A DNA stretch of 64,000 nt, from the NCBI RefSeq assembly GCF_003018255.1, contig NZ_CP027440.1. One strand, written 5' to 3'. The translations under genes and the position numbers were made by a program. The stretch's first letter is position 1, and each line of letters starts with the position of its first letter. Shown piece by piece: positions 13,989 to 14,040 of this stretch. This DNA comes from Escherichia coli. Its GTDB lineage: Bacteria; Pseudomonadota; Gammaproteobacteria; Enterobacterales; Enterobacteriaceae. The notes under the pieces are model-generated. The model did no database searches. It was given only the letters and a program-made list of their open reading frames with translations, and was not told the origin of the DNA.

Positions 13989-14002
13989 TCGCGTTATACG
14001 GC

Positions 14003-14036
14003 AAAAGCCGATGTCATGGCAGACATCGGCTTTTTT
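14003..14036. terminator. Bidirectional rho-independent terminator between convergent argS and flhE
   Basis: Stem gccgatgtc (14007-14015) / gacatcggc (14022-14030), A-run before and T-run (14031-14036) after. Confidence 0.8.
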
Positions 14037-14040
14037 ATCA

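Follow-up and report, generated by a model that had tools for sequence, protein, structure and literature searches.

Two forms of the argS–flhE junction in Escherichia coli: a 52-bp spacer with a lone hairpin and a long spacer with yecV and yecT

What separates argS from flhE in Escherichia coli, and does a nearly empty spacer between them mark a gene loss peculiar to one strain? The question is raised by the window analysed here, a stretch of DNA of 64,000 nucleotides in which the two genes converge across only 52 bp. The argS gene (arginine--tRNA ligase, 577 aa) occupies positions 12255–13988 on the plus strand and ends in a TAA codon at 13986–13988. The flhE gene (flagellar protein FlhE, 130 aa as annotated) lies on the minus strand at 14041–14433, with the complement of its stop codon, TTA, at 14041–14043. 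Both assignments are based on the open reading frame (ORF) list, on Pfam, and on the RefSeq annotation of the near-identical strain 200164. ArgS has the domains tRNA-synt_1d, DALR_1 and Arg_tRNA_synt_N, with E-values from 5e-181 to 9e-23, and FlhE matches PF06366 with an E-value of 1e-40. The flhE ORF runs one ATG further, to 14436; the RefSeq start in the near-identical strain is the equivalent of 14433. The original prediction gave the argS stop at 13988, the flhE stop at 14041 and the 52 bp between them exactly. It also put a gene, yecT, at this place on the K-12 map, and supposed either that the gene was absent from this particular strain or that this K-12 arrangement was mistaken.

The spacer (13989–14040) holds no gene or credible ORF in the ORF list. 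A scan of positions 13500–14500 gave no promoter-like sites, and Rfam, run on the junction in E-value mode and on the whole window, placed no family at the spacer. No ORF with an LprI domain lies between argS and flhE in the window. A tblastn search of the window with K-12 YecT returned only matches with E-values of at least 3.8, and elsewhere in the 64 kb the YecT and K-12 spacer DNA is matched only by chance-level 11–17-mers. Thus the ORF list, the fold and the scan agree with the prediction that a hairpin terminator is all that lies between the two genes. The sole Rfam match at the junction, isrA (16 bits, E-value 0.55), lies inside argS and was dismissed as noise. Elsewhere in the window, Rfam matches at gathering score include MicL sRNA inside cutC (10634–10941, minus strand), C0465 RNA (24187–24264, plus strand) and ES036 (CssrF) sRNA (6656–6698, plus strand). 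A three-tRNA cluster found by Rfam at 42482–42781 (minus strand) matches the Leu, Cys and Gly tRNAs downstream of pgsA in CFT073 and 042.

The hairpin spans positions 14003–14034. On the plus strand it consists of a 13-bp stem, AAAAGCCGATGTC (14003–14015) pairing with GACATCGGCTTTT (14022–14034), around the loop atggca. The core of the stem is GCCGATGTC (14007–14015) paired with GACATCGGC (14022–14030), with a loop of 6 nt at 14016–14021; the core is lengthened by the pairing of AAAA (14003–14006) with TTTT (14031–14034), and the full stem contains 6 G-C pairs. The folding energy is −25.7 kcal/mol on the plus strand (z = −4.3) and −25.4 kcal/mol on the minus strand (z = −5.7), and none of 200 shuffled sequences folded as well. 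The hairpin is unique, with no second copy in the window. The extended stem begins 14 nt, and the G+C core 18 nt, after the argS stop codon.

A consensus terminator scan calls the hairpin on the plus strand only. Six T's at 14031–14036 form the predicted U-tract on that strand, the scan reporting the tail past the stem as TTATCATTAA, with four of the T's already counted in the stem. A stable, G+C-rich stem-loop downstream of the argS stop codon with six T's directly after it is, by sequence definition, a canonical Rho-independent terminator, and it is predicted to end argS transcripts. The core stem does not vary among E. coli, E. albertii and L003, a divergent genome that carries the label E. 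coli; the loop and the 5' part of the spacer do. The keeping of the stem across species while the loop drifts fits selection on the structure.

The terminator had been called bidirectional. This description suits the argS side, with its canonical 6-T tail; it suits the flhE side less well, where the tract is UUUU (UGUU in B2 and F strains) and fails the consensus scan. The four A's at 14003–14006 on the plus strand become, for flhBAE transcripts on the minus strand, a 4-U tract after the hairpin, which is a weak tail: the minus-strand fold gives the hairpin and then UUUUGCCG, that is, UUUU followed by GCCG, and the scan makes no call. Position 14005 is variable. It is A (AAAAGCC) in the window, in 042 and in an O78:H4 strain, and C (AACAGCC) in CFT073 and IAI39, where the flhE-side tract loses one U and the minus-strand tail becomes UGUUGCCG.

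One reading of these features is that the hairpin serves argS only and is not a bidirectional intrinsic terminator, flhBAE transcription ending instead via Rho, RNA polymerase collision or 3' processing. The tails UUUUGCCG and UGUUGCCG and the plus-strand-only call of the scan are in keeping with it, and K-12 likewise is without a canonical intrinsic terminator after flhE. On the other hand, the hairpin is as stable on one strand as on the other, and a strong stem followed at once by four U's can bring about partial termination. The hairpin sits between convergent argS (plus strand) and flhE (minus strand), stable on both strands, and is the sole structure downstream of flhE in the window; since it is the only structure available to flhBAE transcripts, it may act in both directions. 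A passage in a bioRxiv preprint (10.1101/2022.10.23.513370, citing the SEnd-seq study of Ju et al. 2019) describes bidirectional terminators between convergent pairs, with hairpins ending transcription both ways, as prevalent in E. coli, which makes two-way action at argS–flhE plausible. A role confined to argS is thus quite possible, though we lean against it; two-way termination by the hairpin is plausible from its sequence and is probably weaker in the flhE direction.

In MG1655 the gene order is argS (b1876), yecV (b4778, 14 aa, minus strand), yecT (b1877, 162 aa, plus strand) and flhE (b1878), and the distance from stop codon to stop codon is 784 bp, against 52 bp in the window. The statement that yecT lies between argS and flhE in K-12 was therefore right, with yecV sharing the 784-bp spacer, and the alternative of a mistaken map, with yecT located elsewhere, is excluded by the MG1655 annotation. 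K-12 YecT belongs to the LprI family (PF07007, 1e-17 in Pfam). The G+C content of the long spacer is 39.4%, compared with 53.3% for argS and 52.7% for flhE.

Compared with the MG1655 junction, the window shows no plain indel; the spacer differs from stop codon to stop codon. In the pairwise alignment homology stops at TAA+TCG at the end of argS and restarts at the last codon of flhE, and the flhE stop codon itself is TAA in the window and TGA in K-12. As there is no clear homology between the stop codons of the two forms, the difference is best described as replacement of the whole spacer and not as a simple indel. The stems of the argS terminators are different as well (GCCGATGTC in the window, GCCTGATCAG in K-12), the shared ends being only AAGCC...GGCTTTTTTAT, which are generic. 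In the K-12 spacer the consensus scan for terminators called nothing, though folding shows an argS hairpin there, because the consensus rules of the scan do not fit that hairpin. Of the two flanking proteins, ArgS is 99.8% identical to K-12 and FlhE only 94.7%.

An exact 11-bp direct repeat, GATAATTCACA, is present in the MG1655 long form, at 2957–2967 of the extracted locus (L001), at the yecT stop, and at 3086–3096, at the flhE stop. The second copy corresponds to window positions 14046–14056; the repeat is kept in E. whittamii and has one change in Escherichia sp. E1V33. The repeat may have arisen by chance, or it may be a scar of microhomology left when the long form was assembled. The idea that it marks a target-site duplication of the complete yecT insert was rejected, as it flanks only the 118-bp spacer between yecT and flhE.

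The distribution of the two forms was determined in 5426 complete E. coli genomes with a 131-bp query spanning the short junction, a match being counted when it covered at least 80% of the query length. The short junction occurs in 1782 genomes, at 95.4–100% identity, and in the remaining genomes the query matches only at its argS or its flhE end. The K-12 yecV-yecT spacer is present in 3642 of the 5426. Together the two forms account for 5424 genomes, so that the dimorphism is nearly perfect, at about 33% short and 67% long. A gap of the same 52-bp length is present in CFT073, 042, IAI39 and the O78:H4 avian pathogenic (APEC) strain E12049. We take CFT073 to be phylogroup B2, 042 to be D and IAI39 to be F, and E12049 is presumably of the ST117/phylogroup G type. 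The yecT form is found in K-12, DH5alpha, MC4100, B, O157:H7, O55:H7 and O145:H28; the yecT region is also present in O121:H19, and O111:H8 and O103:H2 are without the short junction. The split looks like one of B2/D/F/G against A/B1/E, on a sample of one strain for each of these groups.

The lineage of the window itself is rare. Over positions 9000–21000, identity of at least 99% across the 12 kb is reached in only 9 of the 5426 complete genomes. Strain 200164, from human stool in Mali, comes closest at 99.8%; the genomes that follow, at 98.4%, are mainly poultry and APEC isolates. The window may come from a sparsely sequenced lineage, or its 9000–21000 segment may be a recombinant import. 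Two further observations concern individual carriers. In IAI39 (L060, L068) a large chromosomal inversion places the flh/che region at about 1.24 Mb, and the annotation lists several flagellar pseudogenes, namely flhC and flgI, both with internal stops, and a truncated tap-like gene; the short junction is nonetheless intact. In the long-form strains TST3 and 52148 an IS1 element is inserted within the yecV-yecT spacer or yecT, which fits yecT being dispensable.

Nor is a spacer of 52 bp out of the ordinary for convergent genes. The junction had been described as unusually tight; in the CFT073 neighbourhood, however, ten convergent pairs have gaps of −4, 33, 37, 43, 52, 61, 67, 78, 164 and 501 bp, so that 52 bp falls near the local median of about 56 bp. 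The gap between uspC and otsA in strain 042 is 6 bp.

Both forms extend beyond E. coli. A scan for FlhE in species-representative genomes yielded 55 loci. A homologous short spacer is present in E. albertii (L006) and in L003, the argS of which is about 93% identical to that of E. coli. Compared with the window, these spacers have an identical core stem and are 82.5% identical overall across 57–60 nt, with a different loop and 5' spacer and with an FlhE one codon longer. The yecV-yecT form is present in E. whittamii (L005) and Escherichia sp. E1V33 (L004); its long spacer is 92.1% and 94.7% identical to that of K-12, and the yecT coding sequence 95.7% and 97.1%, respectively. Judged by this divergence, both spacer forms in Escherichia are old.

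In Salmonella, Citrobacter, Leclercia, Kosakonia and Pseudescherichia (loci L007, L009, L017, L023, L027 and L039) 2–3.5 kb lie between flhE and argS, and YecT is absent from that place. The cargo is an MFS_2 sugar transporter and a GH88 hydrolase in Citrobacter sedlakii, Leclercia, Pseudescherichia and Kosakonia, GH88 together with a PBP2-like transpeptidase in Salmonella diarizonae, and a PBP2-like gene alone in one Citrobacter. Since the cargo differs between genera, the spot between argS and flhE is variable across the family. A plasmid origin of YecT finds no support: among plasmid records, high identity is reached only in ones as large as a chromosome and in a 5-kb fragment, and the distant matches are LprI proteins, about 32% identical, in soil bacteria. 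The fragment, NZ_CP069927.1, is 5,069 bp long, is deposited as a plasmid of Klebsiella oxytoca and encodes a YecT 99.4% identical to that of K-12; it is probably a fragment of an E. coli chromosome or a contaminant, and not a plasmid.

Taken together, these results make it very probable that the argS–flhE spacer has long been polymorphic in Escherichia, with two alleles, that the window has the short one, with a lone hairpin terminator, and that the long allele exchanges the whole spacer. In the short allele the lone G+C-rich hairpin with its 6-T tail would act as the Rho-independent terminator of argS, and the same hairpin, with its 4-U tail on the other strand, may also stop flhBAE transcripts. 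In the long allele, seen in K-12, 784 bp of AT-rich DNA takes its place from stop to stop, with a predicted argS terminator of its own, yecV and yecT. That the sequenced strain lost yecT by a recent deletion, as the presence of yecT at the same site in K-12 might suggest, is by comparison hardly credible. The same 131-bp junction is shared at 95.4–100% identity by 1782 genomes, including the reference strains of three phylogroups, E. albertii has a homologous short form, and no remnant of yecT or of the K-12 spacer is left in the spacer or elsewhere in the window. The idea of a strain-specific absence was thus correct in that the window is without the K-12 gene, and wrong in scale, the same absence extending to 1782 of 5426 genomes, among them CFT073, 042, IAI39 and the O78:H4 APEC strain, with a homologue in E. 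albertii.

Which of the two alleles came first is less clear-cut. We infer, as a leaning and not a conviction, that E. coli originally had the short form: this form is common to E. coli and E. albertii, and the long spacer is AT-rich (39.4% G+C, against flanks of 53%). The foreignness of the long spacer is also suggested by the regulation of yecT, the promoter of which is activated by BglJ-RcsB and the expression of which is moderately raised in an hns stpA mutant (PMC3950696). Divergence of the flanking genes points in the same direction. In an anchored, ungapped comparison of one long-form genome (K-12) with three short-form E. coli genomes, in which the flhE of the window (14041–14433) was set against L066, L059 and L065, flhE differs by 5.5–6.2% between K-12 and the short-form E. 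coli and by 2.6–2.9% among the short-form strains, and no such excess is seen in flhA or argS. Fixed differences between K-12 and the short form amount to 17 over 400 bp of flhE, 23 over 2000 bp of flhA and 14 over 1734 bp of argS, so that the divergence is concentrated beside the junction, on the flhE side. The flhE of K-12 is 93.8% identical to that of E1V33, while the flhE of short-form E. coli is 90.9–91.7% identical to it. According to the proposed scenario, the short form would have been kept in B2/D/F/G, and the long form would have been acquired along the branch to E/A/B1 from another Escherichia lineage that already possessed it, via homologous recombination through the flanking core genes.

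The opposite polarity would have an ancestor with yecV-yecT, an old deletion from just past the argS terminator to the flhE stop, and a present-day hairpin that is the diverged argS terminator of the K-12 form. Both hairpins begin 14–17 nt after the argS stop and share the ends AAGCC...GGCTTTTTTAT, and it is these similar offsets and shared ends that would allow the short form to be an old deletion derivative. The yecT form, at species-level divergence in E. whittamii and E1V33, is itself old, and the 2–3.5 kb of genes found here in other enterobacterial genera imply that the family as a whole did not start from an empty spacer. Yet the stems differ (GCCGATGTC vs GCCTGATCAG), the shared ends being generic terminator features, and exactly the short-form stem is found in E. 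albertii and L003. Moreover, the short form is carried by the B2, D and F strains and the O78:H4 strain, and B2, D, F and O78:H4-type groups are earlier-branching groups of E. coli. The AT-richness of the long spacer and the leaning of the K-12 flhE towards E1V33 also tell against a derived short form, which we regard as unlikely, though not far-fetched. Each allele is diverged to the species level within itself and each is shared with two non-coli Escherichia, so that the ancestor could have had yecT or could have been polymorphic. A stronger version of the latter idea, in which the spacer is a long-lived trans-species polymorphism of two alleles, swapped at both stop codons, with linked flhE divergence and possibly maintained by selection or repeatedly spread, is a speculation to which we attach little weight. 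If selection were involved, its target might be the periplasmic LprI-like YecT, or it might be a difference between the spacers in insulating flhBAE and argS from convergent transcription; such a difference could exist, as the A/C variant at 14005 alters the flhE-side U-tract.

With the short allele as the preferred reading of the window, the junction is ordinary: a small, AT-rich accessory segment is commonly absent, depending on the lineage, and what is left between the convergent core genes is a standard terminator. The short form is already visible in the RefSeq annotation of the short-form genomes inspected, and nothing about it is mechanistically new. A literature search with yecT and phylogroup found no paper discussing the argS–flhE polymorphism. 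Its practical meaning is that K-12 is unrepresentative at argS–flhE, as yecV and yecT are missing from the B2, D and F reference strains and the O78:H4 avian strain, whose argS terminator also differs. This is of use when the K-12 annotation, small-protein catalogues (yecV) or the membership of the BglJ-RcsB regulon (yecT) are transferred to pathogenic lineages. The junction could also serve as a simple marker, since it appears to separate B2/D/F/G-type from A/B1/E-type strains.

The locus can be compared with several known systems. Like accessory-gene islets at fixed chromosomal spots, argS–flhE has core flanks, low G+C, lineage-restricted occurrence and genus-variable content. Unlike them, the long allele is without integrase, tRNA, IS or flanking direct repeats, the internal 11-bp repeat being its sole repeat; as a horizontally acquired islet it has the expected base composition, and it shows none of the signatures of mobility, yecV and yecT being all that is annotated. 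Compared with the K-12 argS-yecV-yecT-flhE arrangement, the window is alike in its flanking genes, their orientation and their near-identical coding ends, and differs in that K-12 has another argS terminator, yecV and the LprI-family yecT, none of which is in the window. The bidirectional terminators of Ju et al. (2019, SEnd-seq), as outlined in the same preprint passage (bioRxiv 10.1101/2022.10.23.513370), resemble the spacer in the single hairpin, the short convergent spacer, the stability on both strands and the flanking A-run and T-run. The flanks of the window hairpin, known here from sequence, are asymmetric, A4 against T6 (A2CA in B2/F), and do not offer a canonical U-tract in the flhE direction. 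The closest likeness is to the Rho-independent terminator, with which the spacer hairpin shares a G+C-rich stem of 9–13 bp, a 6-nt loop and a 6-U tract, and beside which it has nothing unusual.
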